A DNA stretch of 64,000 nt from an uncultured Acidimicrobiaceae bacterium (GTDB lineage: Bacteria; Actinomycetota; Acidimicrobiia; Spongiisociales; ZC4RG35), in the NCBI GenBank assembly GCA_964558575.1, contig CAZLEQ010000005.1:3743-67742 (forward strand), given 5' to 3'. Below the pieces are notes generated by a model. It was not told where the DNA came from and ran no database searches. It saw only the letters and a program-made list of their open reading frames with translations. Positions 20,052-40,738 of this stretch are shown here, in pieces. Positions within the stretch are counted from its first letter, which is position 1; every line of letters begins with the position of its first letter. Both the position numbers and the translations under genes were made by a program.

Positions 20052-23000
20052 GCCCTTCTGGCTCGAAGGCCTGGGATGCCTCGATCTCTCCCCGGCCGCC
20101 GGTACGTCTCGAGATGGCAGCCATCAGCTCGGCGTCGGGATCTCCAGGCAGGAACTCGGCGGCGAAGGAGCGTGTGGCGAGGGTGGAGAGGACCACCGCC
20201 TCGCCGTCGGGGATGTCGACCCGCACCCCGACCGCATAGGTCCCGCCCTGGCGTGCGGGCGCCACCGCTCCGAACTCGTGGCCGGAGATCCGATCGAGAC
20301 GCACCTCCTGGGAGGTGCCGTCTGGATAGCTGATCCGGGCGAGGGGCTCGGTGCCGGCGGGCCACTCCTCGGCTCCCTCGAGGGTGACGCTCATCACCTC
20401 GTCGGTGATCTTGGCGTCGATGCGCTGTCCCTCCGACCCGCTCAGCGGGAACGTGTCGCGAACCACGGTGGACCAGAAATCACTGAAACCCTCCCACCCG
20501 GCCCAGCCCGACGCCCAGCGATCCCCTCCGTCGGAGGTCCAGGCGGTGACCCGTCCCAGGCCGACCCGCCAGGCGGCGAGGAGAGGGTCACTCATCTCCC
20601 CGATCTGAAGCTGGATCTCGGCTGTCGGCTTGGGGGTGGTCGCCACGTAGCCGAGGATCGCCGGCGACGCCGCCAGATCACGCACCGCCTCGGCCGTCGA
20701 AGTGACCACCGGGAAGAACTGGCCTTCGTTGATGAACGATCTGGAGGCGAGACGGGCCTCCTGCACGAAGATCTCCGGAATCTCGTTGAGGTCTCGGCCC
20801 GGGTAGAAGCGCCCGTTCCCGGCGGCGGCCACCTCCTCCAGGGCTGGGATGGCGCCCTCCCCGGTGCCCACCACCGAGACCGTGATCCCCAGATCGGCGA
20901 TCTCCTTCACCTTCTCCAACAGGTTGGCGGTGAACGGGCCTCCGCCGAAGTCCTCGCCCAGATCGAGCTCCGTGGTGAAGCCGTCGGTGAACAGGATGAT
21001 GTGCTTCAGCTCCTTGTCGGAGGCGAGGAGCTCCTCGGCGGCTGCGTCCATCGCGGGGACGATCCGGGTCTCGCCGGATGGGCGCAGTGAGCCGATGCCG
21101 CTCGCGATGGTGGCCCGGTCGGGGAACTCCTGTAGGGGGATCACCCACTCCGTGGTTCCGCTGAAGGCGAGTACCCCCACTTCGTCGCCGCTGCCCAGGG
21201 CCTCGATCGCCCGGGTGGCGGCAGCCTTGGATATGTCGGTCTTGTTGACTCCTCCTTCCTCGGCGAACATGCCACGGTCGGTGCAGTGACAGGCTCCCAT
21301 CGACTCGCTGGTGTCGATGAGGAGGACCTCGGCCACCTCGGCCTCACGTTGGGTGTCCGGGGCGTCGGAGTCGACCGGGAGCAAGCCCTCCAGGGGAGTG
21401 TCCCGGTATCCACCCAGTCCGTATGAATGAGTGCCACCGACCACGACCATCCCTCTTCCCAGGTCGCGCACGAAGGTCTCGAGAGTCGAGAACCTCTCGT
21501 CACTGAGGTCGCGTGCGCTCACGTCTACCAGCACCACGGATCGGTGGATCGACAGTTCTTGAAGCCCTGGCATCTCCTCGATCGAGGTTCGCTCGACCTC
21601 GAGACCGCGTGCGGTCAAGGCCTCTTCGAGGATCAACCCCCTGTCGGTCTCTCCCTCGACGATCATCACGCTGGTGGCCCCCCGCACCTCCACCCCGGCA
21701 CGATGCGTGTCGTTCTGGGGCACGGCATCACCGGTCATCCGCACTCGGGCGGTGTACTGGTGCAGGCCCGACTCTCCGGCCTCCACGTTGAACACCGCAT
21801 AGTTCGAGCCGGGAGTCAGCGAGATCTCCTGGGTTCCCACGATCCGGTCCTCTTGGGCCAGCTCGACGATGGCCTCTGCGGAGATGGTCGAGAGGATCTC
21901 GACCGACACATCGAAGGCCTCGCCCTCGTTGACCGACGAAGGCACGTCGACAGCCGATATCGCGGCGTCTGTCACCGTGCTCCCCAAGATGGTGTTGACG
22001 TCGACGACGACGCCGAGAGTCTCCAGCCGCTCCAGTTCGGCCTGGAGATCTCCGGCGTTGGCCCTTCCGTCGGAGACCAGCACGATCCGCTGGCGAGTGT
22101 CTCCGGCCAGGATCGACTCGGCGAGACGCAGGCCCCTGGCCAGATTGGTCGCCTCTGCCTCGACCCCCCGGGCCCGGCGATAGGGCTCGGTGCCCAATGG
22201 GGTCCCTACCCGCGCGTCGGACCCGAACTCAACTACTGCCCACTCGGCTCCGCCGGCGTCGGTCAGTGCCGACTCCACCCATGCCCGCGCCATCTGGCGC
22301 CCTCCGTCTCCCATCGACTCCGACACGTCGACGACGAACACCGTGGCGACGTCATCGGAGCTCCTCACGAACGGCGGGTTGACGAGGGCCAGCACACAAA
22401 GCGCGACGATGAGAGCGCGCACGACCAGTCCGATGCGCCATTGTCGCGACGGCACTCCTCTCGCCCGGGCGCTGATGTACAGCTCCAGTGCCAGGACCAC
22501 GAAGAGGGCAGCAAGCACCCAGGGGAGGAGAGATCGGGCGATCGTGGTCGTGGCGTCGACCAAGGGCTGGGCGTCGGGTGCGGGACGCAGCCCGGGGAGT
22601 GACTCCCTGGGGGCGAGATCCGACTCGGCCGGGTCGGTGTTGACCGCGATATCGACGGGATCCGACCCGTCACGGGCCACCGTCCAGAAGCCGGCCATCG
22701 TGGCCACCGGGGCTGAATCGCCCACCGAGATCGTCGTGGTGTTGCCACGCGGATCGGTCACCGTGGCGCCACTGGCCCCGACCGGCAGCGGCTCACCGAC
22801 GATCAGTGGCTCGGAGACGCCCTCGGAGGTGGCGAGGGCGCCCACCATCCGGGCCCCGAGGATCGGATAGGCGATATCTATCGGCAGATTCGATTGCTCG
22901 AGCGTGAAGGCGAAATAGTAGAAGGGCACCCCCGAGGCATCCCCCTCGACGATCAGAGGGGCACCCGGTGCCCCCAACACCACCTCCCCGCTGGTGACCT

Positions 23001-24228
23001 CGAGAGCCTGAGCCTCGGCGATGGCGATACGACTGACATCGATGTCCTCGAGTAGCGGGTGGTTGGCGCGCAGGGTGGGAATGGGGTTTTCGATCCGCCC
23101 CACCGGAGTGACGCCGGGGGCACCGCCGGGGACGTCGATGGCGATGAAGGGGATCGTGGGGTCGGGGGGAACGGGGACGCCAGCGTAGATCTCGAAGTCC
23201 ACCTCCTGGGCTGGGGCGACGTCGAAGTCCACCTCGGGGAGCGAGCCGAGCAGGCGGTCGATGAAGAAACGGCTCTCCCCGTGCACCCGCGCCCGCAGCG
23301 CGCCGAGCACGGGTGCGCTCACGTAGCGTTGGTTGTCGAGTGCCATCAGGTCCTCGCCGTCGAGGTAGGCGGCGACGCGCGTGCCGGTGGGCAGTTCATA
23401 CGCCTCTTCCACCACGCCCCCACCAGGGATCTCGATTTGCTGGCTCAACACCGTGATCCCGTCCACGTCGAGACGGACTATCTGGATGGCGTCGGGCCCG
23501 CCGGTCGACTCGATGGTGACCCGGGCCTGCATCCCTCCCGGCCCCGAGGTGACGGAGAGGTCGGTGATGGCGCGGTTGGTGTCGGTTCGTCCGATCGGAA
23601 CGAAACGAGTCCCCAGTGGGGCCAGACGCTGCTCCTGCTCGGTGAGCTGACCGTCGGAGAGGAGGACGAAATCGCTTTCCCGCTCGGGGAGCACCAGGGA
23701 CTCGGCCAGGGAGAATGCCGATTCGAAGTCGGCGCCGCCACCGCTGCTCCGGATGGTGTCCGCGGCTTTGGAGAACTCGTCGGGATCGTCACTGTGCGAC
23801 ACCAGGACCGTGGGGCGGGGTGAGGCCACCACGAGGCTGGCGATTCCCTGGTCGGGCAGTTCCGCCCGCAGTTGTTTCGCCTCCGCCACCGCCGAGCCGA
23901 GCCGGTCGGGGTCGCCGTCGATGGCCGACATGGAGGCGGAAGCGTCGACGATGAAGACGGTGTGCTCGGCAAGGTCGGCCTGTTCGAGCAGGGCCGGGCG
24001 GGCGAGAGCGAGCGCGAACAACACCACCGCGGCGAGCTGGAGGATCAGGAGCAGGCTCCAGCGCAGCTTCTGCCAAGGCTCGGCCGCGGTTATGGCGTGC
24101 TTCAGTCCATCCCAATGGAGCAGCGAGGACACCGACGTTGGCGGTCGACGGGGGGTCAGCATGTGGAGGATGACGATCGGCGCGGCGAGGAGGAGCGCGG
24201 TGAGGCCGACCGGCAGCAGCAGGCTCAT
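19867..24228 (-). CDS. BatA-N/VWA/GATase1-like multidomain membrane protein
   Basis: BatA N-terminus (PIVILHML, LLLILQLAA...LARP); three MIDAS motifs DASAS, DVSES, DTSES; GATase-like GGYRDTPLEGLLPV. Confidence 0.85.
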   Translation of the reverse strand: MSLLLPVGLTALLLAAPIVILHMLTPRRPPTSVSSLLHWDGLKHAITAAEPWQKLRWSLLLILQLAAVVLFALALARPALLEQADLAEHTVFIVDASASMSAIDGDPDRLGSAVAEAKQLRAELPDQGIASLVVASPRPTVLVSHSDDPDEFSKAADTIRSSGGGADFESAFSLAESLVLPERESDFVLLSDGQLTEQEQRLAPLGTRFVPIGRTDTNRAITDLSVTSGPGGMQARVTIESTGGPDAIQIVRLDVDGITVLSQQIEIPGGGVVEEAYELPTGTRVAAYLDGEDLMALDNQRYVSAPVLGALRARVHGESRFFIDRLLGSLPEVDFDVAPAQEVDFEIYAGVPVPPDPTIPFIAIDVPGGAPGVTPVGRIENPIPTLRANHPLLEDIDVSRIAIAEAQALEVTSGEVVLGAPGAPLIVEGDASGVPFYYFAFTLEQSNLPIDIAYPILGARMVGALATSEGVSEPLIVGEPLPVGASGATVTDPRGNTTTISVGDSAPVATMAGFWTVARDGSDPVDIAVNTDPAESDLAPRESLPGLRPAPDAQPLVDATTTIARSLLPWVLAALFVVLALELYISARARGVPSRQWRIGLVVRALIVALCVLALVNPPFVRSSDDVATVFVVDVSESMGDGGRQMARAWVESALTDAGGAEWAVVEFGSDARVGTPLGTEPYRRARGVEAEATNLARGLRLAESILAGDTRQRIVLVSDGRANAGDLQAELERLETLGVVVDVNTILGSTVTDAAISAVDVPSSVNEGEAFDVSVEILSTISAEAIVELAQEDRIVGTQEISLTPGSNYAVFNVEAGESGLHQYTARVRMTGDAVPQNDTHRAGVEVRGATSVMIVEGETDRGLILEEALTARGLEVERTSIEEMPGLQELSIHRSVVLVDVSARDLSDERFSTLETFVRDLGRGMVVVGGTHSYGLGGYRDTPLEGLLPVDSDAPDTQREAEVAEVLLIDTSESMGACHCTDRGMFAEEGGVNKTDISKAAATRAIEALGSGDEVGVLAFSGTTEWVIPLQEFPDRATIASGIGSLRPSGETRIVPAMDAAAEELLASDKELKHIILFTDGFTTELDLGEDFGGGPFTANLLEKVKEIADLGITVSVVGTGEGAIPALEEVAAAGNGRFYPGRDLNEIPEIFVQEARLASRSFINEGQFFPVVTSTAEAVRDLAASPAILGYVATTPKPTAEIQLQIGEMSDPLLAAWRVGLGRVTAWTSDGGDRWASGWAGWEGFSDFWSTVVRDTFPLSGSEGQRIDAKITDEVMSVTLEGAEEWPAGTEPLARISYPDGTSQEVRLDRISGHEFGAVAPARQGGTYAVGVRVDIPDGEAVVLSTLATRSFAAEFLPGDPDAELMAAISRRTGGRGEIEASQAFEPEGLTAGVTESYLRWWFLLIAALLWPVDVALRRLRLSRREQPDPPDPSRSPPPRPTSPEASRTR

Positions 24229-25085
24229 CTCAGCACGCCGGCGGCGCGCCAGGTCCTCATGAGCAAGGCCTCGACGTCGTCGTCGGCGTCGACTGCCTCG
24301 AAGCTGGCCCCGGCGCCGCGTGCTGCCCTGGCCACCTGATCGCGCCAGGCCCTCACCCGGTCCCGGTAGGAGGCGGCCACGTCGTCGGTGACGCTGACGG
24401 TGAGCCGTTCACCGAGCTCACGATCGACCAACTCGAGATCCCCCGAGAATTCCGGCTCAAGGTCGTCCTCACAGAGGACGTGGAGAATGGTGACGTCAGA
24501 GCCGGAGGCACGAAGTTGGACCAGGGATCGCCACTCTGTCGTCAGCAGATCGGAGAGGACGATGGTGAGGCCCGGCAGACTGCTTTGGCCGAGCAGATGA
24601 CGGGCCGCATCGGCGAAAGGGGTCAACCCGGTGGCTTCGAGATCCTCGACGTAGTCGAGGAACGAGGGCACCGCGGCGCGGCCGGCGAAACGCGGTGACG
24701 GAGCTCGAGCGGGGAAGGTGTGCACTGAGACCGAGTCGTGGGCGGAGAGGGCGACGAAGCCGAGAGCGGCAGCCAGCCGCTTCGCCTGAAGCATCTTCCC
24801 TCCCACCGCCATCGACCCCGAGGCGTCGATGAGGAGGCGAACGGTGATCTCGTCGTCCGCCTCGTAGAGCTTGATGAGCACCTGGTCGAGTCGTGCCAGC
24901 ACGTGATAGTCGATGCGGCGGAAGTCGTCGCCCGGGTGATACTCGCGGAAGTCAGCGAAGTCGACGGTGTTTCCGTAGCGCTTCGACTTGTGATCCCCGC
25001 CAAATCGACCGATGAGACGATGTCGGCTGGCGAGTTGGAGGCTCTCGAGCCTGGCCATCAATGCCGGGCTGAGAAGCGTGGTCAC
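24225..25085 (-). CDS. DUF58 protein
   Basis: DFADFREYHPGDDFRRID, DASGSM, VLSDL; start overlaps moxR stop. Confidence 0.9.
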   Translation of the reverse strand: MTTLLSPALMARLESLQLASRHRLIGRFGGDHKSKRYGNTVDFADFREYHPGDDFRRIDYHVLARLDQVLIKLYEADDEITVRLLIDASGSMAVGGKMLQAKRLAAALGFVALSAHDSVSVHTFPARAPSPRFAGRAAVPSFLDYVEDLEATGLTPFADAARHLLGQSSLPGLTIVLSDLLTTEWRSLVQLRASGSDVTILHVLCEDDLEPEFSGDLELVDRELGERLTVSVTDDVAASYRDRVRAWRDQVARAARGAGASFEAVDADDDVEALLMRTWRAAGVLR

Positions 25086-26095
25086 GGGGCTCCCCGGATT
25101 TCCGGTCTCGGCTCGGGCACCGAATGGATGACTTCGTCGATGATGGCATCGGTGCCGACACCCTCGGCCGTTGCCTCGTAACCGAGCACCAGGCGGTGGC
25201 GCAGTGCGGCCGGAGCGGCCCAGCGAATGTCCTCTGCGGTCACGTGGGGGCGGCCGTCGATGATCGCAGCCGCTTTCGCCGCGAGGATGATGGATTGGGC
25301 TCCGCGGGGGGACGAGCCCCATCTGACGTAGCGCTTGACCGGTGGAGTGGCGTTGTCACCCTCGGGATGGGTGGCGACGATGATCTGCGACACGTAGCTG
25401 AGCAGATGCGAGGCCACCGGAAGCCTCGGGGTCATTCCGATCATCGACTCGATGGTCTCCATGTCTGCCACCAGGGGCACCTCAGGCACCGCCCCGGTGG
25501 TGGTGCGTCGGAGGATCTCCTCGAGCACTTCCGCCGTCGGGGGGTTGACCGTTGCCTTGAACATGAAGCGGTCGAGCTGAGCCTCCGGTAGGGGGTAGGT
25601 GCCTTCGAGCTCGATCGGGTTCTGTGTGGCGAGAACCAGGAACGGGCGGGGGAGAGAGCGGGTCTCGCCGGCCACGGTGACATGACTCTCTTGCATCGCC
25701 TCGAGCAGGGCCGCCTGCGTCTTCGGTGTGGCGCGATTGATCTCGTCGGCCAGGAGGAGGTTGGTGAACACCGGCCCGGCCTGGTACTCGAAGCGGCGAT
25801 GACCAGTCTCGGTCTCCTCCAACACCTGGGTTCCGACTATGTCGGCGGGCATCAGGTCAGGGGTGAATTGGATCCGGGAGAACTGGACACCCAGGGCCGC
25901 CGAGAACGCCTTGACCAACTCCGTCTTCCCGAGACCGGGGACACCTTCGAGGAGCACGTGACCCTCGGCGAGCAGCCCGACGAGGGTTTGGCGGATCAGC
26001 TCGGGCTGGCCTGCGATCCGCCGACCGACCGCGGACTCGATGTCCGCGGCGACTTCGGTGTATCGGTCGAGATCGGTCTGCTCGAGATTGGTCAA
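25082..26095 (-). CDS. moxR: MoxR family AAA+ ATPase
   Basis: GVPGLGKT, RIQFTPDLMPAD, DEINRA, ATQNPIELEGTYPLPEAQLDRF. Confidence 0.95.
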   Translation of the reverse strand: MTNLEQTDLDRYTEVAADIESAVGRRIAGQPELIRQTLVGLLAEGHVLLEGVPGLGKTELVKAFSAALGVQFSRIQFTPDLMPADIVGTQVLEETETGHRRFEYQAGPVFTNLLLADEINRATPKTQAALLEAMQESHVTVAGETRSLPRPFLVLATQNPIELEGTYPLPEAQLDRFMFKATVNPPTAEVLEEILRRTTTGAVPEVPLVADMETIESMIGMTPRLPVASHLLSYVSQIIVATHPEGDNATPPVKRYVRWGSSPRGAQSIILAAKAAAIIDGRPHVTAEDIRWAAPAALRHRLVLGYEATAEGVGTDAIIDEVIHSVPEPRPEIRGAP

Positions 26096-26103
26096 CGTCC
26101 CTC

Positions 26104-27711
26104 CTAGCGGGCCTCGGCGGCGAGTAGTTCGAAGTAGGTCTGGACGATGGTGCGCATCGAAGGGGGAAGCTGGAGTGCCCCGAGCGCGTCGGCTGCCTGA
26201 TTCAGATACTCCGGAAGCACCTGTGCATAGGGGACGATCGCCTCGCCTCGCGCGGTGGGGCCATCGGCGCGCCCCAGAACGTCACCGTCGCCGCTGCCTC
26301 CAGCGATGTCGACCTGGAGCAGTTCGGCGAGTGCGTCGGATTCGGTCGGGCTGAACACGTTGGCGGTCTCGACCTCGGAGCCGTGGTCCTCGGTGCCGCC
26401 GGCTCCGACGTTGCCCTGCCCTCCCTGGCCGGAGGCGTTGCCGTCTCCGGGAGCCACATTCGAGATCTCACCGCTGCCGCCATCGGACTGCTGGCCTCCG
26501 CCGCCGCCCTGGCCCCCTTGCCCTTGGCCTTCCCCCTGCCCTTGGCCCTGTCCTCGCCCCTCTCCGATGCCCCGGCCTTCGTCGTCGTCCTGCCCCTGGC
26601 CGTCGCCCTCGCCCTGGCCAGAGGTCCCGGCTCCGGCCAGGCGGGTTCGGGCACCCTCGAGGGCCCGCTGGGTCTCGCTGAGCGCCTGTTGTCCTCTGGC
26701 TCCATCGATACCCGACTCCTGTTCTCCGGCCGCGCGCTGCAAGGCCCGCGCCGCAGCCTCCAGATCACCAGAGTCGATGGCGCGGGCTGCGTCTGACAGC
26801 TCGCTGGAGAGTTCAGGGTTTCCCGCGGCCTGCGACTCGGCGAGGTCGGAGAGGCGATCGGCCAGTGCGGCCAGCTCCGGCTCGGAGAGATCCCCGAGCT
26901 CGTTGGCTACATGCTCGAGCTGAGAGACGGCGTCGAGCGGGGCGCCGTCGGACAGCGGTCGCAGCGCCAGGTCGCGGGCCAGACCCTGAACCGCGGCCTT
27001 CTGTGACAAGAAGTCGGGGTCGACCTGGCCGTCCAGCCGCTTCTCGGCGTTCTCGAGCGACTGCACCGCCTCCTCCAGGGACTCCGCCTGACGGAGCTCC
27101 TGTGCGAGTCTCTCCAACTCGGCTGCGATCTCGGCGGCCGTCTCCACATCGGACTCCTCTATTGCGGCAGCGATGCGCTCGAGCTGTTCCGCCTCGGCCT
27201 CGATCGCCGTCGCCAGATCCGAGGACAGGGCAGGTGTCGAACCGAGCGGAGGGAGTAGCCCGATGATCACGGCCAGGGCGGCAGCCATGCCGAACTGGCG
27301 GAGCCGGGAGCGGTTGGCACCTATCGGAATTGCCGCGGAGGGCTTTGAGCCAACGGCCAACGAGTCGGCACGTTGCTGGATGGCGAGGTGCACCCCATTG
27401 GCAGGGTCACCGAACTCGAGGGCAGTGGTGAAGGCGTCACGGGCTCCGAGGCCACGCTCCGCGGCCCGGGCCGCGTCCCAGGGCGTGATGCGAAGTGTCG
27501 TCGCCCTGATGATCAGGACGAGGACGAAGCCGGCCGCCAGGGCACCGGAGAAGAGCGGCCCGCGGTCGAAGGAAGTCAGTCGGTCGGCGCCGAGGGCGAG
27601 GACGATTGCGATCCCGAGATAGGGCGCATACTGCTGGGCGGTGGCAGACAGCCAGGCCAGACGCATACGTGCGCGGATGCGTCTGAGGAATCCCTGTCGA
27701 CTTTCGCTCAA
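26104..27711 (-). CDS. MoxR-associated membrane-anchored coiled-coil protein with Gly/Gln-rich region
   Basis: N-terminal TMs, long helical region, GQG repeats, C-terminal VPY...Y...LPP...V.TYF. Confidence 0.75.
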   Translation of the reverse strand: MSESRQGFLRRIRARMRLAWLSATAQQYAPYLGIAIVLALGADRLTSFDRGPLFSGALAAGFVLVLIIRATTLRITPWDAARAAERGLGARDAFTTALEFGDPANGVHLAIQQRADSLAVGSKPSAAIPIGANRSRLRQFGMAAALAVIIGLLPPLGSTPALSSDLATAIEAEAEQLERIAAAIEESDVETAAEIAAELERLAQELRQAESLEEAVQSLENAEKRLDGQVDPDFLSQKAAVQGLARDLALRPLSDGAPLDAVSQLEHVANELGDLSEPELAALADRLSDLAESQAAGNPELSSELSDAARAIDSGDLEAAARALQRAAGEQESGIDGARGQQALSETQRALEGARTRLAGAGTSGQGEGDGQGQDDDEGRGIGEGRGQGQGQGEGQGQGGQGGGGGQQSDGGSGEISNVAPGDGNASGQGGQGNVGAGGTEDHGSEVETANVFSPTESDALAELLQVDIAGGSGDGDVLGRADGPTARGEAIVPYAQVLPEYLNQAADALGALQLPPSMRTIVQTYFELLAAEAR

Positions 27712-27851: not shown

Positions 27852-30299
27852 ATGCCCTCCAGCTCGATGTGGCGACGCCTCGCTGTCATCAGCGGGTTGA
27901 GTGCGGTTGCCTTCGTCGCTCCGGTCCTCGACCTGTACGGGGACAATCCCGAGGTGTTCGTCGCCAACAGGTCGAGCGCACACGAGATCCTCCTCTTCGG
28001 CATCGGGATTGCGCTCCTCGTCCCCCTTCTGGCCTGGGCCGCCTTGGCGGCGGCCGACGCCGTCGGAGGCCGCTTCCCTCATGTCGTCTACCGGAGTCTC
28101 GTTGCCTTCTTGGCGATCGGGGCGGGACTGGTGATCAGCCGGCAGATGCAGCCCGACCACACGGTTCTCGCCGCCGTAGTGGCGGTGATCGCTGCCGTGT
28201 TGGTGTACTGGGCGGTGTCCAATATCGACGTTCTCTTTCTCTTGGCTGCGGTGGCGATTCCCCTGTCCGTGGTGATGTTCCTCGGCACCTCCGCCACCGC
28301 ACGGCTGATATGGGAGGAGCCCGAGATCGTTGAGGGTGCGGAGGAAGTGGGCAATCCGGCGCACCTGGTGGTGCTCCAACTCGACGAGATGCCGCTGGCA
28401 TCCATCATGGACACCGACGGCACGGTGAACCAGGCACTGTTTCCCAACTTCGCCCGGCTCGCCGGCGACGGCACGTGGTACCGCAATGCGCTCTCGGACT
28501 CGATCGCCACCACTCAGAGCGTCCCCTCGATCCTGACCGGGCTCCGGGGAAGAGAGGACGCCGGCCCGTCGTATCTGGACCACCCCGACAACCTCTTCAC
28601 CCTCTTGGGCGACTCATACGAGATGCATGTGATCGAGTGGGTGGCCGAGCTCTGCCCTGAAGACGTTTGCCCCGAGTACGCCGGTCGAGCCCCGGCGCGG
28701 TTCTCCAACCTCCTCCAGGACGTCGGAGTGGTCTATGGGCACCTCACCCTCCCCGGGGCGATGAGGGATAGGTTGCCCAGCATCGGGAACGCATGGGCCG
28801 GTTTCCTCGGCCAGGAGGAGCCTGCAGAGGGTGTCGGCGTCGCAGTGGACGGTGTCCCGGTGCCACCCGGCCATGAACGCCAGGAGTGGGTCGACTGGGT
28901 GCAACGACTGATCAACGGCATCGATCGCGACACCCCGCCGACGCTCAGCTATGCCCACTTACGCGCGCCGCATGTCCCCTGGGAAACCAATCCGTCGGGC
29001 ACCCACTACGAGCGTCCCGAGCAGTACACAGAGGTACAAGGGGTCGAGGGCGACGGGCGATGGGGTCCTGAGCCGGGGCCGGCACTCCTCGGATTCCAGC
29101 GACACCTCTATCAGGTGGGGTTCCTCGACACGATGCTGGGTCGTCTCCTCGATCGAGTCGAGCAAGCGGGCAACTGGGACGACACGATGATCGTGGTCAT
29201 CGCCGATCATGGGGCATCGTTCGTGCCCGGGGAGCATCGCCGCTGGCCGTTCGAGGACAACCGCGACGACCTGTACCGGATCCCGTTCTTCGTCAAGTAT
29301 CCGGGTCAGACCGCCGGGGAGACGATCGACCTCCCGGCGTTCGGCATCGATCTCCTCCCCACCATCGTCGATGCTCTCGAGATCGAGACCGATTGGGAGT
29401 TCGACGGGATCTCTTTGCTCCAACTGGACTTCGAGCGGCCCCATGAGCCCATCCACTGGTGCTGTAATGGGGAGGGGGCCAGCATCGACCTGAATGTCCT
29501 CAACGCCCAAGTGCAGCGGAACCACCAGTGGATACCGGACCAGACCAGCTGGAGGGGCGTGGCCGGGATCGGCCCCATGGCCCCGCTGGTGGGCACCCCG
29601 GTCACAGAGATCGAGGTCAGCTCTGACGCCGGCTTTCGTTGGTCGATCGAGCTCGGCACCGACCTCGACTCGGTCGACAGGACGTCGGGCAAGGTGCAGA
29701 CCCTGATCACCGGACGTGTCGAGGCCGACCGTCTCCCCGACTCCGATCGGCTTCTCATAGTCCTCAACGACACCGTGGCCGGTGTCGCCCACCTCAGTCG
29801 CGACAGCGTGTCCGGGGGCGCCGTCATCGGCTTGATCGCCGAGGAGCTGGTCCGGGACGGTGCCAACGACGTCGAGTTGTTGCTGCCGGGCGAGTCCGGA
29901 AGCTGGGTTGCCGGAGTTCGGGATGACATCACTCTCGAGTTGGTCACCGCCGACGGGCGCATGCTCGATCTCGGCACCGAGGGCTCGCTTCGGATCCAGG
30001 TCGATTCCGTCGAGGAGACCGAGAACGGATGGGAGGTGGTGGGATGGGCCGCCGATGTGACTGCGAAGGCCACGCCCGACATGGTCTACGTCTACGCGGG
30101 AGACCGGCTGCTGGCCTGGGGCCCACCGAACGAAGACAACGCCAACGTGGTCCGCTGGTTCGATAGTGAAGACTTGCTCCGCTCCGGTTTCGTATTCGAG
30201 GTGAGTGCCGAGGAGGTCCCCCCCGAGATAGCCCAGTTGCTCATCGTCGCCGAGTTCGGGGACGCCGCGGTGGCCGACCCGGCCTCCCTCACCCGCTGA
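27852..30299 (+). CDS. Membrane-anchored sulfatase/alkaline-phosphatase-superfamily transferase
   Basis: About 5 N-terminal TMs, LQLDE, TTQSVPSILTG, PHVPW, ADHG, IPFFVKYP. Confidence 0.85.
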   Translation: MPSSSMWRRLAVISGLSAVAFVAPVLDLYGDNPEVFVANRSSAHEILLFGIGIALLVPLLAWAALAAADAVGGRFPHVVYRSLVAFLAIGAGLVISRQMQPDHTVLAAVVAVIAAVLVYWAVSNIDVLFLLAAVAIPLSVVMFLGTSATARLIWEEPEIVEGAEEVGNPAHLVVLQLDEMPLASIMDTDGTVNQALFPNFARLAGDGTWYRNALSDSIATTQSVPSILTGLRGREDAGPSYLDHPDNLFTLLGDSYEMHVIEWVAELCPEDVCPEYAGRAPARFSNLLQDVGVVYGHLTLPGAMRDRLPSIGNAWAGFLGQEEPAEGVGVAVDGVPVPPGHERQEWVDWVQRLINGIDRDTPPTLSYAHLRAPHVPWETNPSGTHYERPEQYTEVQGVEGDGRWGPEPGPALLGFQRHLYQVGFLDTMLGRLLDRVEQAGNWDDTMIVVIADHGASFVPGEHRRWPFEDNRDDLYRIPFFVKYPGQTAGETIDLPAFGIDLLPTIVDALEIETDWEFDGISLLQLDFERPHEPIHWCCNGEGASIDLNVLNAQVQRNHQWIPDQTSWRGVAGIGPMAPLVGTPVTEIEVSSDAGFRWSIELGTDLDSVDRTSGKVQTLITGRVEADRLPDSDRLLIVLNDTVAGVAHLSRDSVSGGAVIGLIAEELVRDGANDVELLLPGESGSWVAGVRDDITLELVTADGRMLDLGTEGSLRIQVDSVEETENGWEVVGWAADVTAKATPDMVYVYAGDRLLAWGPPNEDNANVVRWFDSEDLLRSGFVFEVSAEEVPPEIAQLLIVAEFGDAAVADPASLTR

Positions 30300-31653
30300 G
30301 GGCCGGGGCCAGGCTGTACAGCACCCGAGTCCCTCCATCGAGGGTCTGCGAGGCGATGGTCTCGAAATGGGTAGAGAGCAACCCCTCGAATTCGGTCCTC
30401 GAGCGGTTTGGGTGAAGCTCCGACTCCAGCTTGTTGGCGGTCAGCGTGGCCACCATCTCGTCCTCGGGCGCGACGAACTCGACGACCACCGGGCAGCCGA
30501 GAGCGGCCAGCCAGGCCACCACCTCTGAGGGCGGAATGCTGGCGGTGTAGATCAGGTGATGGATCAGGCCATAGGCGATCACCAGGTCTGGGTCGGCGCG
30601 TTCCATCAGGCCGGGACGTTCCTTCCCGGCCCAGCCCTGTGCCGGTGTTGGGTTGGTCAGGTCGCTGAGGACGATGGACACCTTGGAGCCTCTCCGGTAG
30701 AGCGCATCGAGGACGGCCTCGTCGCCGTCCACGGCGATGGCGACAGCCCCCGATCCTGCGGCGAGCTCGGAGAAGTGCCCGTCATTGGCTCCCAGGTCGA
30801 CGACACGTCGTGGACGGTGGGTTTCGAGGGCGCGGGTCAGGAAGTCGCCCTTCTTGTCGCGGTCGCGCGCCACGTGATCACACGACTCGTACCCGACCCA
30901 TCCCCCCGCGCCGGCCTCCCATTCCAGGCCCTCGACCAGCTTTCGCAGCTTGTTCACATTGGCCAGGATCATCTCGGCACCGAATCCGGCGGTCTTCAGG
31001 TGGTTGCGCACCGGGGCTCCCGACATGCTCCGTTCCATCCTCGCCTGGAGGGAGACGTGGGGGAGGGTGGAAGGTCGGAGACGCTGCCAGAACCCGAGGA
31101 CGTTGCGCATCTCGGCGGCGGTGGGTCCCTCCGGGTTCCCGCGCATCCAGGGCTGAAATGGGATCCCGGCGTCGGCTCTGAGCATGAGCGGAAAGAGGAA
31201 CTGCCGGGTGAACTGTCGGTATCCGATCCAGGGCTCGCCCGGTGAGTACTCCTCGAACGAGCCGATGTCGAGGAACACCGGACGGCCATCCACGAACTGG
31301 ACGTTGAACGGAGTGGCATCCTTGATGGTGATCCCGTCGACGAGGGCCTCCGCCAACAGGTCGAGTTGGAGGAGGGCTGCGTCTTTCAGCATCGAGAACG
31401 TCCACTCGTGCGGATAGGACACGAACGGGATGCGCGGGTGCTCCAGCGCTCCGGCCACTTCCTCCGCCTCGTATTCGACCGGCGTGGAGCCGATGAGCCT
31501 GCCCTCGGAGATGGCACGTGCGAAGAAGTCGGTGGCGGAGAGGGCGTTCCAGGAGCGAAGTCCTCGCTCGTCGAGCAAGCGGAAGACCCGATCGCCTGTG
31601 AAGACGATGTGCGATGCGGGGTCGCGGAAGGACCCCGGATCGGCCCGATGCAT
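30289..31653 (-). CDS. NoeA-like kinase-like/SAM-dependent methyltransferase
   Basis: SFRDP, SYPHEW, KDATPFN...FLDIGSF; SAM motif VVDLGANDG; LIHHL, VEFV. Confidence 0.85.
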   Translation of the reverse strand: MHRADPGSFRDPASHIVFTGDRVFRLLDERGLRSWNALSATDFFARAISEGRLIGSTPVEYEAEEVAGALEHPRIPFVSYPHEWTFSMLKDAALLQLDLLAEALVDGITIKDATPFNVQFVDGRPVFLDIGSFEEYSPGEPWIGYRQFTRQFLFPLMLRADAGIPFQPWMRGNPEGPTAAEMRNVLGFWQRLRPSTLPHVSLQARMERSMSGAPVRNHLKTAGFGAEMILANVNKLRKLVEGLEWEAGAGGWVGYESCDHVARDRDKKGDFLTRALETHRPRRVVDLGANDGHFSELAAGSGAVAIAVDGDEAVLDALYRRGSKVSIVLSDLTNPTPAQGWAGKERPGLMERADPDLVIAYGLIHHLIYTASIPPSEVVAWLAALGCPVVVEFVAPEDEMVATLTANKLESELHPNRSRTEFEGLLSTHFETIASQTLDGGTRVLYSLAPALSG

Positions 31654-31661
31654 CTCGGGGG

Positions 31662-31838
31662 TCAGGACTCGGTCGGTATTGCGGGCTCGTCGACCTCGGC
31701 CTCGGCCTCGGCGATGGCACCCTTGCCCACGAGGCGAGCCTTCCACGCCTTGAAGGCCACGAGTATTCCTGCCGCTCCACCGAGAAGCGCCTGCAGGATG
31801 AGGCTTCCCGATCCGGCATCGAGGTATGCAAACAACAT
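31662..31838 (-). CDS. Small single-TM protein with AYLDAGSGS motif
   Basis: 58 aa MLFAYLDAGSGSLILQALLGG...; GGAG SD; ends 8 bp before the methyltransferase start. Confidence 0.8.
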   Translation of the reverse strand: MLFAYLDAGSGSLILQALLGGAAGILVAFKAWKARLVGKGAIAEAEAEVDEPAIPTES

Positions 31839-31917: not shown

Positions 31918-32892
31918 TCAAACCCGGTAGAGCGTCTTCCCTTCGCGCTCGGAGGCGCGGACCCGCCCGATGAGGCGGAGATGCTCGAGATGGGACACCG
32001 TCTCCAGAAAGGCGAGACGCGCCCCGACGGGGTCGAGATTGGGGCGAAACGACTGTGTCATCACGTTCCAGGCCGTGGTCTCGGCGGTTCGAACCAGGTC
32101 GGTCATGTCCCTCAGGCGGCGATCGTGGTGGAGGAGGATCTGTCTCGCCCGCTCATCGCCCTGGTCGATGAGGGTGCCGTGGGCGGGGTAGGTGCGGCTG
32201 ATCTCCAGTGCGATCAGCCTGCGGAGCGAGTCGAGGTAGTCGCCGAGAGGGTCACCGATATCGGTGTCGTACATGATTACCGGAGAGATCCGGGGGAGCA
32301 CGTGATCGCCGGAGAAGAAGACTCCTGTGCGGGTGTCGCGCAGACAGATGTGAGCCGGCTCGTGGCCCGGGGTGTGCACCACCACCAGAGACCGACCCGT
32401 GCCGAGCGGGATCTCGTCGCCATCGGCCACCAGATGGTCAGGCGGGTCGATCAGCGGCATGTAGTCCGGCCGGCGGGTGCGGGTCGTGGCTTCGATGACC
32501 TGGTCGGGGACACCGTGGGAACGGGCAATGCCGGTCAGCCTTCTGGCATACCCCGGTGTGTCGTTGTAGCGATCGACGAGTTTGGCGGCTCGGTCGTGCA
32601 TGACGAAGCGGCACCCCAGCTCCCGCACCAGACGCGAGGCCATGCCGACATGGTCTGGATGGAGGTGGGAGACCACCAATGTGTGTACTGCGGACTCGTC
32701 GAGACCGAGATAGGTCAACCCCTCTCGCAGCGCGGTCCGGCCCGGCTCCCAATCCGTGCCACAGTCGATGAGGAGCAGCCCGGTGTCGTCTTCGATCGCG
32801 TAGGCATTCACCCACGCTGGAGATTGGAAGGGGAGTGGGGCCGGGATCAGGTGAATCCCGTCACCCAGAGACTGTGGCGATGGGATGCTCAT
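31918..32892 (-). CDS. MBL-fold metallo-hydrolase
   Basis: SHLHPDH, TPGH, GDH, PAHG. Confidence 0.92.
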   Translation of the reverse strand: MSIPSPQSLGDGIHLIPAPLPFQSPAWVNAYAIEDDTGLLLIDCGTDWEPGRTALREGLTYLGLDESAVHTLVVSHLHPDHVGMASRLVRELGCRFVMHDRAAKLVDRYNDTPGYARRLTGIARSHGVPDQVIEATTRTRRPDYMPLIDPPDHLVADGDEIPLGTGRSLVVVHTPGHEPAHICLRDTRTGVFFSGDHVLPRISPVIMYDTDIGDPLGDYLDSLRRLIALEISRTYPAHGTLIDQGDERARQILLHHDRRLRDMTDLVRTAETTAWNVMTQSFRPNLDPVGARLAFLETVSHLEHLRLIGRVRASEREGKTLYRV

Positions 32893-33512
32893 GTCTTCCT
32901 CGGCTTCTGGCTGCGCCTAGTCGCCCACCAACTGCTGAGGAGAGCGATGGCGAGCGTGACGGCCAGGGCAGTACCCGACCAGATCGCCACCCCGCGCCCG
33001 CCGACCTCGTTCGGATCGAGAAACGGATACGCGTGGTAGTCGGTCATCGCCCCGCGCGTCAGGGTGTAACCGAGGTAGAGCACCGGCAGCGCCGTCCAGG
33101 CCGCGGCGTCTCTCACGGCGAATGGAAGTGGGGGCGGGAAGGCCAGCCAGTCGGCGAGCACCGCCACCGGGCCCACAAAGCCCAGGCTCCAATCGACCCA
33201 TGGCTCCGTGGATCCGGGCACCGTACCGAGTGAGGTCTGGAGCGAGGCGAAGAGTGTGACGGTCATCGCCATCGAAACGGTGACGGCACCCCTGAAGAAC
33301 GAGAATCGCTTCGACCCGCCGAGACCGGGGCGGACGGCATACATGGCGAGCATCGCCATCGCCAGCACGTTGCTCAGGACGGTGAAAGAGGAGAGGAATT
33401 CGGTGGGCGGTGTCTCGCCGCGACTCATGCCGATCGCAAGCCGGCCGACCAGGGCCACGGCCAGGAGGGAGGCCATGGCGAGGCGAAGGGAACGAAGGGA
33501 CGTCTCGCTCAT
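32889..33512 (-). CDS. Pr6Pr/FAR-17a-like integral membrane protein
   Basis: FTVLSN, RGA, ADWL, YTLTRG, YPFLDP. Confidence 0.75.
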   Translation of the reverse strand: MSETSLRSLRLAMASLLAVALVGRLAIGMSRGETPPTEFLSSFTVLSNVLAMAMLAMYAVRPGLGGSKRFSFFRGAVTVSMAMTVTLFASLQTSLGTVPGSTEPWVDWSLGFVGPVAVLADWLAFPPPLPFAVRDAAAWTALPVLYLGYTLTRGAMTDYHAYPFLDPNEVGGRGVAIWSGTALAVTLAIALLSSWWATRRSQKPRKT

Positions 33513-33679
33513 GGGGCGGGGATGGTAAACGCGGATTGCTTGGCCGATCGGGTGGCATGTCGAACTCGACGCGTCTGGCGGGTCAGGCGAGGGCGATTTC
33601 CTGGCGTCGGATGGATCACCCTGCCGAGCATCGGGTTGGTTTCTTCGCGATTGGGGCTGAGACCTGCTCGGCGCTCCGT

Positions 33680-33830
33680 TATGCTTTGTGGTGGCGCCGT
33701 GAGATCCGGTGCCACGCCTGGCTTGTGCGCTCCAACCCGTCGGAGACTGCACATGGCGATCGGCGGCTTCGGCCGACGGTCGCGCAGATGGTCGGTGCAG
33801 TTGAATTCGACGGGATCCAAAGGAGCGAAA
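33680..33830 (+). ncRNA. Highly structured 5' leader of RRM gene (candidate cis-regulatory RNA)
   Basis: -10 TATGCT 33680-85; hairpin 33691-33715; long nested hairpin 33728-33827 with cUUCGg apex that pairs the SD. Confidence 0.6.
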
Positions 33831-34085
33831 ATGGCAACCAATCTCTTCGTAGGGAATCTTCCCTTCTCGACGAGTTCCTCCGAGCTGGAGGAGCTCTTCG
33901 GCCGATTCGGCGCGGTGTCCCGCGCCCAGGTGATCACCGATCGCGACACGGGGCGTTCCCGGGGCTTCGGTTTCGTCGAGATGGACTCCGACGACGAGGC
34001 GCAGCAGGCCATCGAGGCTCTCGACGGCTCCGAGATCGACGGGCGCCAGATCAAGGTCAACGTGGCCCGGGAGCGCTCTCGCTGA
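33831..34085 (+). CDS. RRM (RNP) RNA-binding protein
   Basis: RNP2 LFVGNL, RNP1 RGFGFVEM; AAGGAG SD. Confidence 0.95.
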   Translation: MATNLFVGNLPFSTSSSELEELFGRFGAVSRAQVITDRDTGRSRGFGFVEMDSDDEAQQAIEALDGSEIDGRQIKVNVARERSR

Positions 34086-34098: not shown

Positions 34099-34323
34099 CT
34101 AGCCGTGTTCGACGGGGTCCTTGATCCCGAAGGTGATGTCGAGCGTCACCGAGAACACGGTGGGGGCTCCCGAGGAGTCCACTTCCCCGCCGACTTCGAC
34201 GATCTCGAAGCGGTGGATGTCGGAGATGGTGCTGGCGGCGCGCGCCAGGACGGTGCGCACCGCATCCTCGATCGAGTCTCCGGCTGTGCCCGACAGTCTG
34301 ATCGTCTTGGTTATCGATGACAT
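34099..34323 (-). CDS. Dodecin-like flavin-binding protein
   Basis: 74 aa, K.I.L.GT...SIEDAV...A..T...FE..E..G.V...F.VTL.I.F pattern. Confidence 0.8.
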   Translation of the reverse strand: MSSITKTIRLSGTAGDSIEDAVRTVLARAASTISDIHRFEIVEVGGEVDSSGAPTVFSVTLDITFGIKDPVEHG

Positions 34324-36392: not shown

Positions 36393-37262
36393 ATGCGGCT
36401 CGTCGGGGTCCTCGTTGCGGCCATGGCCCTGGTGGCGTGCACAGGCTCCGATGCAGGATCGGTGACTTCGATCGCGATACGGGAGACGACGACCACGTCC
36501 ACTACGACGACCGCGACCACCACCACCTCTACCATCCCCACCACCACGACCACCAACCCGTTCGCACGACCCGAGTGGCTGGGCACACATCCCCTGCCCC
36601 TGCGTCCCGATGGCCACGGCGAGGCCCAGCCCACACCGGACGAGCTGGTGGACCGTCGACTGGGGACCATCGACCTTCTAGACCCTCCGGCCACGTCGCG
36701 GTTCGAGAGCACCATCGAGCCGGTCCCCCCCGATGTGCTGGCCCGCTCCAGCTGGCAGGACGATTGTCCCGTGGGGGTGGATGACCTGCGGTACCTGACC
36801 CTCGGCCACTATGGCTTCGACGGGGAGTTCCACACTGGGGAGATGATCGTCAACGTCGACGTAGCCGAGGATGTGGTCGACGTCTTCGCCAGGCTCCACG
36901 AGGCGCGTTTCCCCATCGAGCAGATGCGGGTCATCAGGGCGGACGAGATCGACGATCATCCGACGGGAGACTGGAACGAGACCACGTCGTTCGTCTGTCG
37001 ACCTGCCGTGGGGTCCTCGAATTGGTCACAGCACGCCTTTGGTTTGGCCATCGACGTCAATCCCTTCCACAACCCCTATCTCAAGGGGGATCTGGTGATC
37101 CCGGAACTGGCCGCTGCTTACACCGACAGGGACCACGTGAGGCCGGGCATGATCGTCGATGGTGACGTGGTGGTCGAGGCCTTCGCCGAGATCGGCTGGA
37201 CCTGGGGCGGCGATTGGAACACCCTCAAGGACTGGATGCACTTCTCCGTGACCGGCCGCTAG
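36393..37262 (+). CDS. M15 family metallopeptidase lipoprotein
   Basis: Lipobox LVAC, Thr-rich linker, SQHAFGLAIDVNP, WGGDW...DWMHF. Confidence 0.88.
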   Translation: MRLVGVLVAAMALVACTGSDAGSVTSIAIRETTTTSTTTTATTTTSTIPTTTTTNPFARPEWLGTHPLPLRPDGHGEAQPTPDELVDRRLGTIDLLDPPATSRFESTIEPVPPDVLARSSWQDDCPVGVDDLRYLTLGHYGFDGEFHTGEMIVNVDVAEDVVDVFARLHEARFPIEQMRVIRADEIDDHPTGDWNETTSFVCRPAVGSSNWSQHAFGLAIDVNPFHNPYLKGDLVIPELAAAYTDRDHVRPGMIVDGDVVVEAFAEIGWTWGGDWNTLKDWMHFSVTGR

Positions 37263-37388
37263 AGAACCGCACTTTGCTTCCTATGCACAGGGGCCGGATT
37301 CGGGCTCCCAGCAAGGGGAAGTGTCCGGTCGAGTCTCGGCGCCTTCTCTGTTCACCAGGGCCGGTATATCGGCCCTACAGCATTAGGA

Positions 37389-37411
37389 ATCGAACATATG
37401 TTCGATATAGT
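37389..37411 (+). promoter_or_regulatory. LexA SOS box and -10 of dnaE2
   Basis: Perfect 18-bp palindrome ATCGAACATATGTTCGAT (37389-37406); TATAGT 37406-11; GTG start at 37418. Confidence 0.92.
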
Positions 37412-37417
37412 AGGGCG

Positions 37418-40400: not shown

Positions 40401-40738
40401 GTTTCGTCCGTGACCGGCTCGTGGGTTGTCTCACCGCAGCGGAGGCTCTCGAAGTGCGTCGCAACCAGGCCCGGGTCAAGGTGGCCGGGGTGGTCACCCA
40501 CCGACAGCGGCCCGGGACGGCGCGCGGGGTCTATTTCCTCAATCTGGAGGACGAGACCGGTCTTCTCAACATCGTGGTGCTTCCCGACGTGTGGGCCCGG
40601 CACCGTCGTGTCGTCCGCAAGAGCCCCGCCCTGGTGATCCATGGTCGTCTCGAGTACCACGACGGGGTTACCAACATCGTCGCCCGTGACTTCGATCCGA
40701 TCGGGGTGACAACCGTCCGGTCCCGAGATTTCAGGTAG
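37418..40738 (+). CDS. dnaE2: Error-prone DNA polymerase DnaE2 (ImuC)
   Basis: PHP YAELHCHTNFSFLDGAS, PDIDVDF, FGFPESH, QRPGTA, C-terminal SRDFR. Confidence 0.97.
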   Translation: MARYAELHCHTNFSFLDGASHPEDLVQRAMDLGYEALAVTDHNGFYGTSRLWQAAKETGLAVIYGVEIALERPDPGGGPDPVFRAEEWDRKRHGRSKGGQGRLRRGRSVRSHGVKPTRLPESDHLVLLAGSPDGYRALSHLVTRAQMLGEKDHPIYTWDDLAVAATNRAVHALTGCRHGAVPKATSEGLAAVVRETSRLREIFGPRLHMELWHHGMPEDDSRNDMIWEVGRKLGLSTLATNQVHYHDRADAHLSEVLAAIGGRRTLAEADGFRPATDERYLKHPKEMEWRFTRYPGAVERSAELGRRLAFDLALVAPRLPDFPMPGHFRDEMDYLRHLTWEGAGEVYPGSDDGIDPAARRRLQYELDIIERLGFPGYFLVVKDLVDFSREQGIYCQIRGSGADSAVCRCIGLTRVDPIRLQLPFERFLSEERGKPPDIDVDFEADRREEVIQYCYRRYGRERAAMVANVITYRARSVLRDVAKTFGFTQAQVDGLSKYVDSHDPAQLRDMDISLPEGVTSEMIYDICWRLDGFPRHLGIHSGGMVIADRPLWQVVPLEWGRMEGRTVIQWDKDDSAAVGIVKFDLLGLGMLNALHLTTDLVEETHGVEIDLARIPQEPAIYESMTRADTVGLFQIESRAQMATLPKMKPKTFYDLAVEVALIRPGPIQGQSVHPYLRRRSGEEPIRYPHPSTEPILEKTLGVPIFQEQLMELARVCAGFDGSQADRLRQAMTHKRSAEAMGRLRHEVYAGMASNGIVGSAADEIWEKLQGFSSFGFPESHSVSFAYIVYMSAWLRFHYPAEYLAGLLNAQPMGFYSPNSLVQDAQRHGVVVLAPCVNLSWHDCTIEPMVTDPDDVVSHLGQEWRRGRGHVADPLRPAVAVRIGLRYVRNLGEREITRIEAARILGGEFSSPEDLASRTGLDVASLEGLAASGALEAVGLGRREGLWAAGALAEIDPERLALSPGVAAPTLPGMTEEEIHRADLWSTSVSSRHPMSFVRDRLVGCLTAAEALEVRRNQARVKVAGVVTHRQRPGTARGVYFLNLEDETGLLNIVVLPDVWARHRRVVRKSPALVIHGRLEYHDGVTNIVARDFDPIGVTTVRSRDFR

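Follow-up and report, generated by a model that had tools for sequence, protein, structure and literature searches.

In a 64-kb window of DNA from an uncultured Acidimicrobiaceae bacterium (the whole stretch of 64,000 nucleotides that was analysed), three genes at positions 27852..31838 encode a 58-aa membrane micro-protein (P0001), a NoeA-like kinase-methyltransferase (P0002) and a sulfatase-fold membrane enzyme (P0003). With this locus, the noeA/noeB (Lani_1193-1195) system, already known as a gene neighbourhood, gains a new member. The original prediction, made from the letters of the sequence, had taken the trio for an undescribed surface-modification system; that claim has to be withdrawn, since the enzymes are homologues of NoeA and, remotely, of NoeB and, as the available passages of a Legionella pan-kinome survey (PMC9758233) indicate, the neighbourhood had already been reported. 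What is new here is a third, near-universal component that is also present inside the classical rhizobial operon, together with a defined motif, a lineage-dependent leader indicating the likely membrane orientation of this component, and the reuse of the same module on TagF-like enzymes. The chances appear about even that this noeA/noeB-type three-gene module adds a phosphate-containing group to a glycoconjugate that is secreted or belongs to the envelope, the micro-protein being the membrane anchor of the kinase-methyltransferase.

Layout of the locus

The trio consists of three open reading frames (ORFs), which lie exactly where the original prediction had placed them, with the following features (SAM, S-adenosylmethionine):

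31662..31838, minus strand: micro-protein gene P0001 (58 aa), with a short N-terminus, the motif, one membrane helix, and a basic and then acidic tail
31803..31826, minus strand: YLDAGSGS motif, micro-protein residues 5-12
30289..31653, minus strand: NoeA-like kinase-methyltransferase gene P0002 (454 aa), no membrane helix or signal sequence seen
30919..31653, minus strand: kinase-like N-domain, P0002 residues 1-245, with D112, N117 and D129 (catalytic-type) and R25
30289..30891, minus strand: class I SAM-methyltransferase C-domain, P0002 residues ~255-454, motif I VVDLGANDG
27852..30299, plus strand: sulfatase/alkaline-phosphatase-fold membrane enzyme gene P0003 (815 aa)
27852..28292, plus strand: N-terminal membrane region, P0003 residues 1-147, from a hydropathy scan
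28359..29486, plus strand: catalytic domain, P0003 residues ~170-545, with D178, T220 (codon 28509-28511), H369, H374, D452 and H453
29487..30296, plus strand: C-terminal extension of P0003 (~270 aa), no recognisable fold or family

Exactly 8 nt separate the TGA of the micro-protein gene (31664-31662) from the ATG of the NoeA-like gene (31653), and P0003 and P0002 are convergent, with 3' ends that overlap by 11 nt; the single-helix protein with AYLDAGSGS, its 8-nt spacing and the convergent, overlapping sulfatase-fold gene are all found as they had been described. The micro-ORF looks like a real gene, judging from the AGGAG directly 5' of its ATG, from a GC content by codon position (0.69/0.49/0.73) that matches the pattern of the adjoining genes, and from its 343 homologous proteins (31-102 aa, E ≤ 1e-3). 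The G+C content of the window is 62-69%, and the proteins most closely related to those it encodes carry the label Acidimicrobiia.

Conservation of the three-gene neighbourhood

By its gene neighbourhoods, the trio is a widely conserved functional unit and not a chance association, as the original prediction had supposed in proposing that the three genes work together. A scan of one genome per species, with a pattern derived from a 24-sequence subset, returned at least 599 candidate stretches, of which 596 were confirmed as relatives of the NoeA-like gene. Neighbourhoods were counted in the best 80 of these relatives in species-representative genomes, which are the closest to P0002, and the percentages may therefore not hold for the whole family; the sulfatase-fold gene was counted, within 6 kb of the NoeA-like gene, by a profile built from the first hits. 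A micro-ORF stands beside the NoeA-like gene in 77 of the 80 loci, and in 76 it is directly upstream and on the same strand (in two of these the NoeA-like gene is cut by a contig end). In the other one, L067 (188-2403, minus strand), the micro-ORF is on the other strand, where it immediately precedes the sulfatase-like gene and diverges from the NoeA-like gene, the only such arrangement in the 80 loci. Two of the remaining three loci have no upstream DNA (L036 and L082), and one is truly without a micro-ORF (L048).

The sulfatase-fold membrane gene is found within 6 kb in 67 loci: it adjoins the NoeA-like gene in 59 of them, co-directional with it in 51 and convergent in 8, and lies elsewhere in the 6-kb range in the other 8; in the 13 loci in which it is absent, the DNA available downstream amounts to less than 1 kb in seven and to 1.6-6 kb in six. 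In one locus (L065) the convergent neighbour is a classical soluble-type sulfatase, a second sulfatase-fold ORF being present in the same locus, and in another (L076, 5776-5973) the micro-ORF is frameshifted straight after AYLDPGSGSML, with no sulfatase-fold gene within 6 kb, so that the copy is either decaying or wrongly assembled. Three loci have two sulfatase-fold membrane genes of one family near the NoeA-like gene, in tandem in L028 and L078 and one on each side in L055.

When all ORFs of at least 150 aa were clustered, no further family was found in more than 11 of the 80 loci, so that the module comprises these three genes. A family-2 glycosyltransferase lies near the trio in 10 of the loci (e.g. 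L070:2961-4022), the sole hint of a glycan context.

The same order of micro-ORF, noeA and noeB is common to four plasmid records, those of Sinorhizobium meliloti 1021 pSymA, Ensifer pT173b, Novosphingobium and Singulisphaera. The annotation of Ensifer canadensis pT173b lists nodL, a 71-aa hypothetical protein, noeA and noeB ('sulfatase-like hydrolase/transferase'), and the 71-aa protein reads ...VPAHA-YLDPGTGSMLVQ...; in S. meliloti 1021 pSymA the same micro-ORF is found between nodL and noeA, overlapping the noeA start, and the Singulisphaera plasmid carries all three genes, the small ORF being unannotated. Relatives of the NoeA-like protein span Actinomycetota, Acidobacteriota, Pseudomonadota, Planctomycetota and other phyla.

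Relation to the rhizobial operon and to the Legionella genes

The genes noeA and noeB were reportedly described by Ardourel and colleagues in 1995 as host-range nodulation genes of the nodL-noeA-noeB operon of Sinorhizobium meliloti. Their roles were still given as unknown in a 2022 preprint, and the literature on noeA and noeB, covered as titles and the starts of abstracts, assigned them no biochemical function; the texts consulted report no biochemical assay of any family member. The window shares with this operon the full-length NoeA homology, a micro-ORF just 5' of the NoeA-like gene (AYLDPGTGS in the operon, AYLDAGSGS in the window), an adjoining membrane sulfatase-fold gene and the D/T/H/H/D residues of its product. 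By sequence, the locus is nevertheless a departure from the rhizobial prototype: the window has neither nodL nor a nodulation context, the sulfatase-like gene is convergent instead of co-directional, the transferase belongs to a different subfamily and carries the ~270-aa C-terminal extension, and the micro-protein is without the 20-aa leader.

The closest description of the whole neighbourhood is that of Lani_1193, Lani_1194 and Lani_1195 in the passages available from the Legionella survey (PMC9758233), where Lani_1194 is a NoeA homologue with kinase-like and methyltransferase parts, Lani_1193 a small hypothetical protein without a domain, and Lani_1195 a protein of the alkaline-phosphatase fold with EptA, YejM and MCR-1 as best templates. 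Among 816 neighbourhoods, homologues of Lani_1193 were present in 65% and those of Lani_1195 in 38%, and a decoration of secreted factors or of the envelope was proposed. This architecture matches that of the window trio, and those passages make no mention of the motif, the leader or the topology. Neither the motif strings nor the Lani_1193 sequence appear in the searched supplement tables of PMC9758233, and the presumed identity of Lani_1193 with the micro-protein family is consequently drawn from its size and position. In full-text literature, Lani_1194 was found in PMC9758233 only, and the literature covered on noeA, noeB and Lani_1194 was not found to describe the motif, the leader or the fusions to TagF-like enzymes, the 1995 report by Ardourel and colleagues being outside that coverage. 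The present findings turn the vague idea of a 'decoration' into specific questions of binding, topology and peptide mass.

The NoeA-like kinase-methyltransferase

By alignment, P0002 is a full-length homologue of rhizobial NoeA: compared by tblastn with the annotated noeA of plasmid records, it shows 31.5% identity over residues 7-448 (97% of the protein), with E values from 5e-56 to 1e-55, and the search retrieved 65 plasmid records, each with at least 80% query coverage and 57 of them from Sinorhizobium. The family is large, with 5118 representative clusters at E ≤ 1e-3 and 1460 (50% identity) at E ≤ 1e-30. The N-terminal half contains the motifs KDATPFN and DIGS, and the C-terminal half DLGANDG; in an alignment of 42 diverse relatives, S8, R25, E83, W84, D112, N117, D129, S132, D286, G288, E345, R352 and H365, among others, are invariant; D112, N117 and D129 belong to the kinase-like half, D286 and G288 to methyltransferase motif I.

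The AlphaFold2 model of the whole protein has a predicted local distance difference test (pLDDT) score of 92.1 and a predicted template modelling score (pTM) of 0.93. All top Foldseek matches of this model are SAM methyltransferases (E ~1e-7), and because the whole model returned methyltransferases only, the N-domain (residues 1-245) was modelled separately (pLDDT 89.6). Among the PDB matches that Foldseek listed for it, nearly every one is a protein kinase or resembles one (CK2, PknG, RNase L, AceK and MSK1), with E values from 2.4e-5, a probability of 1.00 and moderate template modelling (TM) scores of 0.34-0.46. For the C-domain, Pfam Methyltransf_23 scores E 2e-4, below the curated cut-off, and NCBIfam gives nothing. 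Alignment and models together show P0002 as a predicted cytoplasmic enzyme in which a kinase-like active site, intact in its key residues, is combined with a SAM-methyltransferase domain.

The profile of the NoeA family finds WbdD as its best match in the PDB (E 1.2e-5), specifically the methyltransferase domain, and aligns weakly with the WbdD kinase over the catalytic loop and a D-x-G-S segment. The structural matches and those of the WbdD profile search thus bear out the original reading of the motifs, in which the N-half was taken for kinase-like and the C-half for a SAM methyltransferase. According to the part of PMC3482155 available, WbdD of E. coli O9a phosphorylates the end of a lipid-linked glycan and then methylates the phosphate, forming the O-antigen cap. 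Both WbdD and P0002 combine a kinase-like domain with a SAM methyltransferase in one cytoplasmic protein. The resemblance that had been proposed between the two is therefore real, but it is distant and the domain order is reversed, since in WbdD the N-terminal methyltransferase is followed by the kinase and a coiled coil, whereas P0002 starts with the kinase-like domain and ends at residue 454 with no coiled-coil tail seen; no ATP-binding cassette (ABC)-transporter O-antigen genes lie near the window trio. In the passages available from PMC9758233, the related Legionella kinase-methyltransferase family Lcin_0519 and WbdD are called 'clearly different, remotely related' families.

The sulfatase-fold membrane enzyme

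P0003 matches Pfam Sulfatase with an E value of 1.8e-23. Its hydropathy profile has four peaks (residues 10-28, 46-64, 78-96 and 127-145), the stretch 103-147 is long enough for two helices, and two Arg lie within the first 10 residues; this pattern may correspond to five N-terminal helices with the N-terminus inside. The region of the nucleophile reads ...IATTQSVPSILTG, and no C/S-x-P-x-R is found in P0003, the position reading T-T-Q-S-V-P here and T-x-x-[AS]-[VL]-P in relatives. D178, T220, P225, H369, H374, D452, H453 and K482 are invariant in 36 relatives, in which C268 and C273 are nearly so, a Cys pair that suits an outside location, and T220 is kept in 58 of 63 relatives. True NoeB and other distant partners align with P0003 at the D, T, H, H and D catalytic residues.

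In profile searches of the PDB, the lead matches are phosphonate monoester hydrolases and sulfatases, mainly over the C-terminal part of the fold, and LtaS and LtaP (E 8e-14 to 7e-13) and YejM (2e-6) are also matched; NCBIfam returned for P0003 partial matches only, far below the cut-offs (LtaS 17.3 bits vs 970, YejM 15.1 vs 825). P0003 resembles LtaS, EptA (MCR-1), BcsG and YejM in having Thr at the nucleophile position and in its predicted layout, with N-terminal membrane helices and then a metal-dependent domain that would face outward; it differs from them in that its best sequence matches are soluble phosphonate monoester hydrolases and sulfatases and its family scores are far below cut-off. 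The hydropathy and residue patterns show P0003 as a predicted membrane enzyme of the LtaS/EptA/BcsG architecture, in which the membrane helices precede a domain with a metal site and a nucleophilic Thr. The C-terminal extension is conserved within the P0003 subfamily, with near-invariant G581, G621 and G670, and is absent from the 553-aa NoeB; it has no Pfam match, and the Atlas search returned 'hypothetical protein' clusters only.

The Pfam Sulfatase assignment, together with the best sequence matches in the PDB, could also be taken to mean that P0003 is an ordinary hydrolytic sulfatase and the trio a set of unrelated neighbours. Such an explanation is scarcely credible in view of the invariant Thr nucleophile without C/S-x-P-x-R, of the N-terminal membrane region like that of LtaS, EptA and YejM, of the PDB matches, which mainly cover the C-terminal part of the fold, and of the adjacency of a sulfatase-fold gene to the NoeA-like gene in 59 of the 80 loci across several phyla. 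The earlier assignment of P0003 to the Thr-nucleophile enzymes, and not to the formylglycine sulfatases, accordingly agrees with the invariance of T220 and with the lack of CxPxR.

Motif and predicted topology of the micro-protein

P0001 starts with MLFAYLDAGSGS, which is followed by ~17 hydrophobic residues and then by a K/R-rich tail (K/R, Lys or Arg). No Pfam family (none at E ≤ 1) and no NCBIfam family were found for it, and the Atlas search returned 'hypothetical protein' clusters only. Pfam contains a DltX model; no family match of P0001 with a micro-protein of the DltX type was found in Pfam, nor any dlt-like genes among the annotated neighbours.

In 76 related micro-ORFs, the Y and the D of the motif are kept in all 76, the next position is P in 62 or A in 14, and then follow G in 70, S/T in 73, G in 69 and S (S7) in 74; beyond the motif, Q11 is kept in 68, G16 in 75 and K/R25 in 74. 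The consensus over the 76 copies is [VIAL]-[LF]-[AG]-Y-L-D-P-G-S-G-S-[ML]-[IL]-L-Q-x-x-x-G-G-x-A-[GA]-x-x-V-x-x-[KR]-L-[YF]-W. Searched for in a loose form, the motif turns up once in the window, all six frames considered, and 78 times in 893 kb of related loci, 77 of them at the position of the micro-protein, which is more than chance.

Two forms of the micro-protein can be distinguished. The short form (54 copies) starts at a median of 5 residues before the Tyr and occurs in loci labelled Actinomycetota or Planctomycetota, with the exception of two labelled Acidobacteriota (L009 and L011); the NoeA-like proteins of these two are 62-63% identical to P0002, and their micro-proteins are of the leaderless MIFG-YLD type, as in Acidimicrobiia, which points to gene transfer or to a fault in labelling or binning. 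The leader form (22 copies) has a median of 24 residues before the Tyr, resembling a Sec signal peptide, with ~1 K/R near the start, a hydrophobic core and an end in A/V-x-A/G directly before the Tyr in 22 of 22 copies (position -3, A in 14 and V in 8; position -1, A in 21 and G in 1). It is found in loci labelled Vicinamibacteria, Gamma- and Alphaproteobacteria, Binatia, Thermoanaerobaculia, Rhodothermales, Thermodesulfobacteriota, Thermodesulfovibrionia and Candidatus Multivoradales, all of them lineages of the Gram-negative type.

The positive-inside rule and the -3/-1 rule of signal peptidase are established knowledge, and their application to the leader and to the K/R pattern (2.9-4.5 K/R in the 15 residues past the helix vs 0.2 before the Tyr in the short form) would place the motif outside and the tail inside. 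We thus infer a bitopic micro-protein, with the conserved Y-L-D-P/A-G-S-G-S end predicted outside the membrane and the basic tail predicted inside. The predicted cytoplasmic tail has no conserved Ser/Thr, K/R25 and W28 being conserved, and Q11, G15 and G19 lie on one face of the helix, which suits helix-helix packing.

This topology bears directly on the mechanism that the original prediction had put forward, in which a group of the methyl-phosphate type is assembled in the cytoplasm and then moved to an envelope polymer, the peptide serving as a subunit or, in the version considered here, as a carrier with the group on one of its Ser. The combination of kinase and methyltransferase, as in WbdD, a maker of methyl phosphate, and the tight co-occurrence of the peptide with both enzymes agree with such a scheme. 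With a Sec-like leader that ends just before the Tyr in 22 of 22 copies and K/R past the helix, however, the GSGS serines should face outward, beyond the reach of a cytoplasmic enzyme, and the cytoplasmic tail offers no conserved Ser or Thr, so that a cytoplasmic Ser-linked carrier is very improbable on the predicted topology.

Occurrence of the module on larger proteins

A profile search for the module in longer proteins gave at least 19 matches, a lower bound since the search scored the 8000 candidates that share most words. Four clusters among them (P0408-P0411, with 3, 1, 2 and 8 members, 14 in total; 418-452 aa) have a leader, AYLDPG[ST]G and a helix, followed by a TagF-like domain. Pfam PF04464 (CDP-glycerol glycerophosphotransferase) scored 32 bits against a cut-off of 22.1 in one of the three clusters scanned and stayed below threshold in the other two; for the fourth cluster the assignment was precomputed. 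The module thus also occurs outside noeA neighbourhoods. In addition, the module and a NoeA-like enzyme form an in-frame fusion in P0403 (543 aa), and P0324 (890 aa) joins the NoeA-like methyltransferase part to a Pfam Sulfatase domain, while the apparent fusions in P0402 and P0396 look frameshifted. Unlike the single fusions, the TagF-like set weighs heavily in favour of the module as an anchor of cytoplasmic enzymes: the TagF family works from the cytoplasmic side, and the module heads enzymes of this family.

These occurrences also touch on two other roles that may be considered for the micro-protein. It could be an acceptor, the outward Thr enzyme attaching a phospho-substituent to a Tyr, Ser or Thr residue in the exposed end (Y-L-D-P-G-S-G-S), in the way that the related transferases PptA and EptC modify pilin or flagellar proteins. 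No other part of the micro-protein is as conserved as the motif (Y in 76 and S7 in 74 of the 76 copies), which is predicted on the side of the catalytic domain, and in L067 the micro-ORF is directly 5' of the sulfatase-like gene. Motif and helix, however, also head the TagF-like proteins, which Pfam places with glycerophosphotransferases of the cytoplasmic type and which have no sulfatase domain, and the micro-ORF stays with the NoeA-like gene even in the six loci without a nearby sulfatase-fold gene; on this balance, an acceptor role appears unlikely.

It could alternatively be a regulatory peptide, neither anchor nor substrate, that switches the membrane transferase or the kinase-methyltransferase on and off, as small membrane peptides regulate envelope enzymes and sensors. 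The small size, the single helix with its Q11/G15/G19 face and the position 5' of both enzymes in the operon are compatible with this role, but the fixed place beside the NoeA-like gene, directly 5' of it in nearly all loci (77 of 80), and the existence of enzymes that carry the module fused to their N-terminus are more in keeping with a constitutive subunit, which leaves a regulator distinctly improbable.

Proposed mechanism

In the anchor reading, the micro-protein would be a membrane subunit by which the soluble kinase-methyltransferase is kept at the inner membrane face, by analogy with BcsF, a single-pass membrane peptide of ~60 aa that, in the part of PMC11470070 available, recruits the cytosolic BcsE and makes no contact with the phosphoethanolamine transferase BcsG. 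The kinase-methyltransferase would phosphorylate and methylate a membrane-bound substrate, and may methylate the phosphate as WbdD does, while the Thr enzyme would transfer the phospho-group on the outer face through a phospho-Thr intermediate, as LtaS, EptA and BcsG act outside. The operon logic of BcsE-BcsF-BcsG is that of the trio (a cytosolic protein, a membrane peptide and a transferase of the superfamily of P0003); this is a likeness of layout, with no sequence relation claimed, and BcsE is a sensor of cyclic di-GMP (c-di-GMP), unlike the kinase-methyltransferase of the trio. Co-folding of the NoeA-like protein with the micro-protein, run without controls, gave scores of 0.01 and 0.13 (mark, 0.32), which count neither for nor against binding.

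Several points weigh against the anchor reading or the module on which it is built. Both the topology of the micro-protein and the cleavage of its leader are predictions, and so is any binding between the proteins of the trio. An anchor leaves the conservation of the outward-facing motif, the most conserved part of the micro-protein, unexplained, which keeps the acceptor and the regulator alive as rivals. The arrangement in L067 suggests that the micro-protein may serve the transferase instead of, or besides, the kinase-methyltransferase. In the BcsE-F-G precedent, the peptide does not touch the transferase. L048 has no micro-ORF, and six loci whose downstream DNA extends over 1.6 kb or more have no sulfatase-fold gene. 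Since the genes of the trio usually lie end to end or share a few bases, P0403 and P0324, each a single case of fusion, may be errors of sequencing or gene calling. As regards the known system, P0003 is only remotely related to NoeB proper (the profile of the P0003 subfamily finds NoeB at E 4e-6), and in an S. meliloti nodL mutant polar on noeA and noeB, the only reported change in the Nod factor is the loss of O-acetylation.

A more far-reaching possibility, and quite a long shot, is that the module is a widespread and hitherto undescribed membrane 'handle' with a phospho-modified exposed end, whose outward Tyr, Ser or Thr would be used by the LtaS-like enzyme as the covalent anchor or primer of a phosphate-containing substituent or chain, with the kinase-methyltransferase docked on the inner tail to supply or cap the donor; if true, this would be a peptide-anchored counterpart of a polymer of the lipoteichoic-acid type.

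Neighbouring genes in the window

A metallo-beta-lactamase-fold hydrolase (31918-32892, minus strand; nearest NCBIfam model Strvi_7410, below cut-off) ends 80 nt 5' of the micro-ORF and is preceded by a Pr6Pr-family membrane protein (32889-33752, minus strand). The hydrolase ORF family is present in four sources, the window and 3 of the 80 loci, lying 5' of the micro-ORF in L012, and its linkage to the trio is therefore specific to this clade. On the other side, the minus-strand genes at 19867-27711 look like a Bat/MoxR-vWA (von Willebrand-A) cluster right beside the trio, with a MoxR-type AAA ATPase (25082-26095), a DUF58 protein (24225-25322), an adjoining 1453-aa BatA/von Willebrand-A protein (19867-24228, minus strand) and, beside these, a 535-aa protein (26104-27711, minus strand) with an acidic, repetitive, Gly/Gln-rich C-half. 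Further genes lying downstream in the window, an RRM-domain protein (33522-34085, plus strand), a dodecin (34099-34323, minus strand) and a 1174-aa protein of the DNA polymerase III alpha type (37214-40738, plus strand), appear to be ordinary housekeeping genes.

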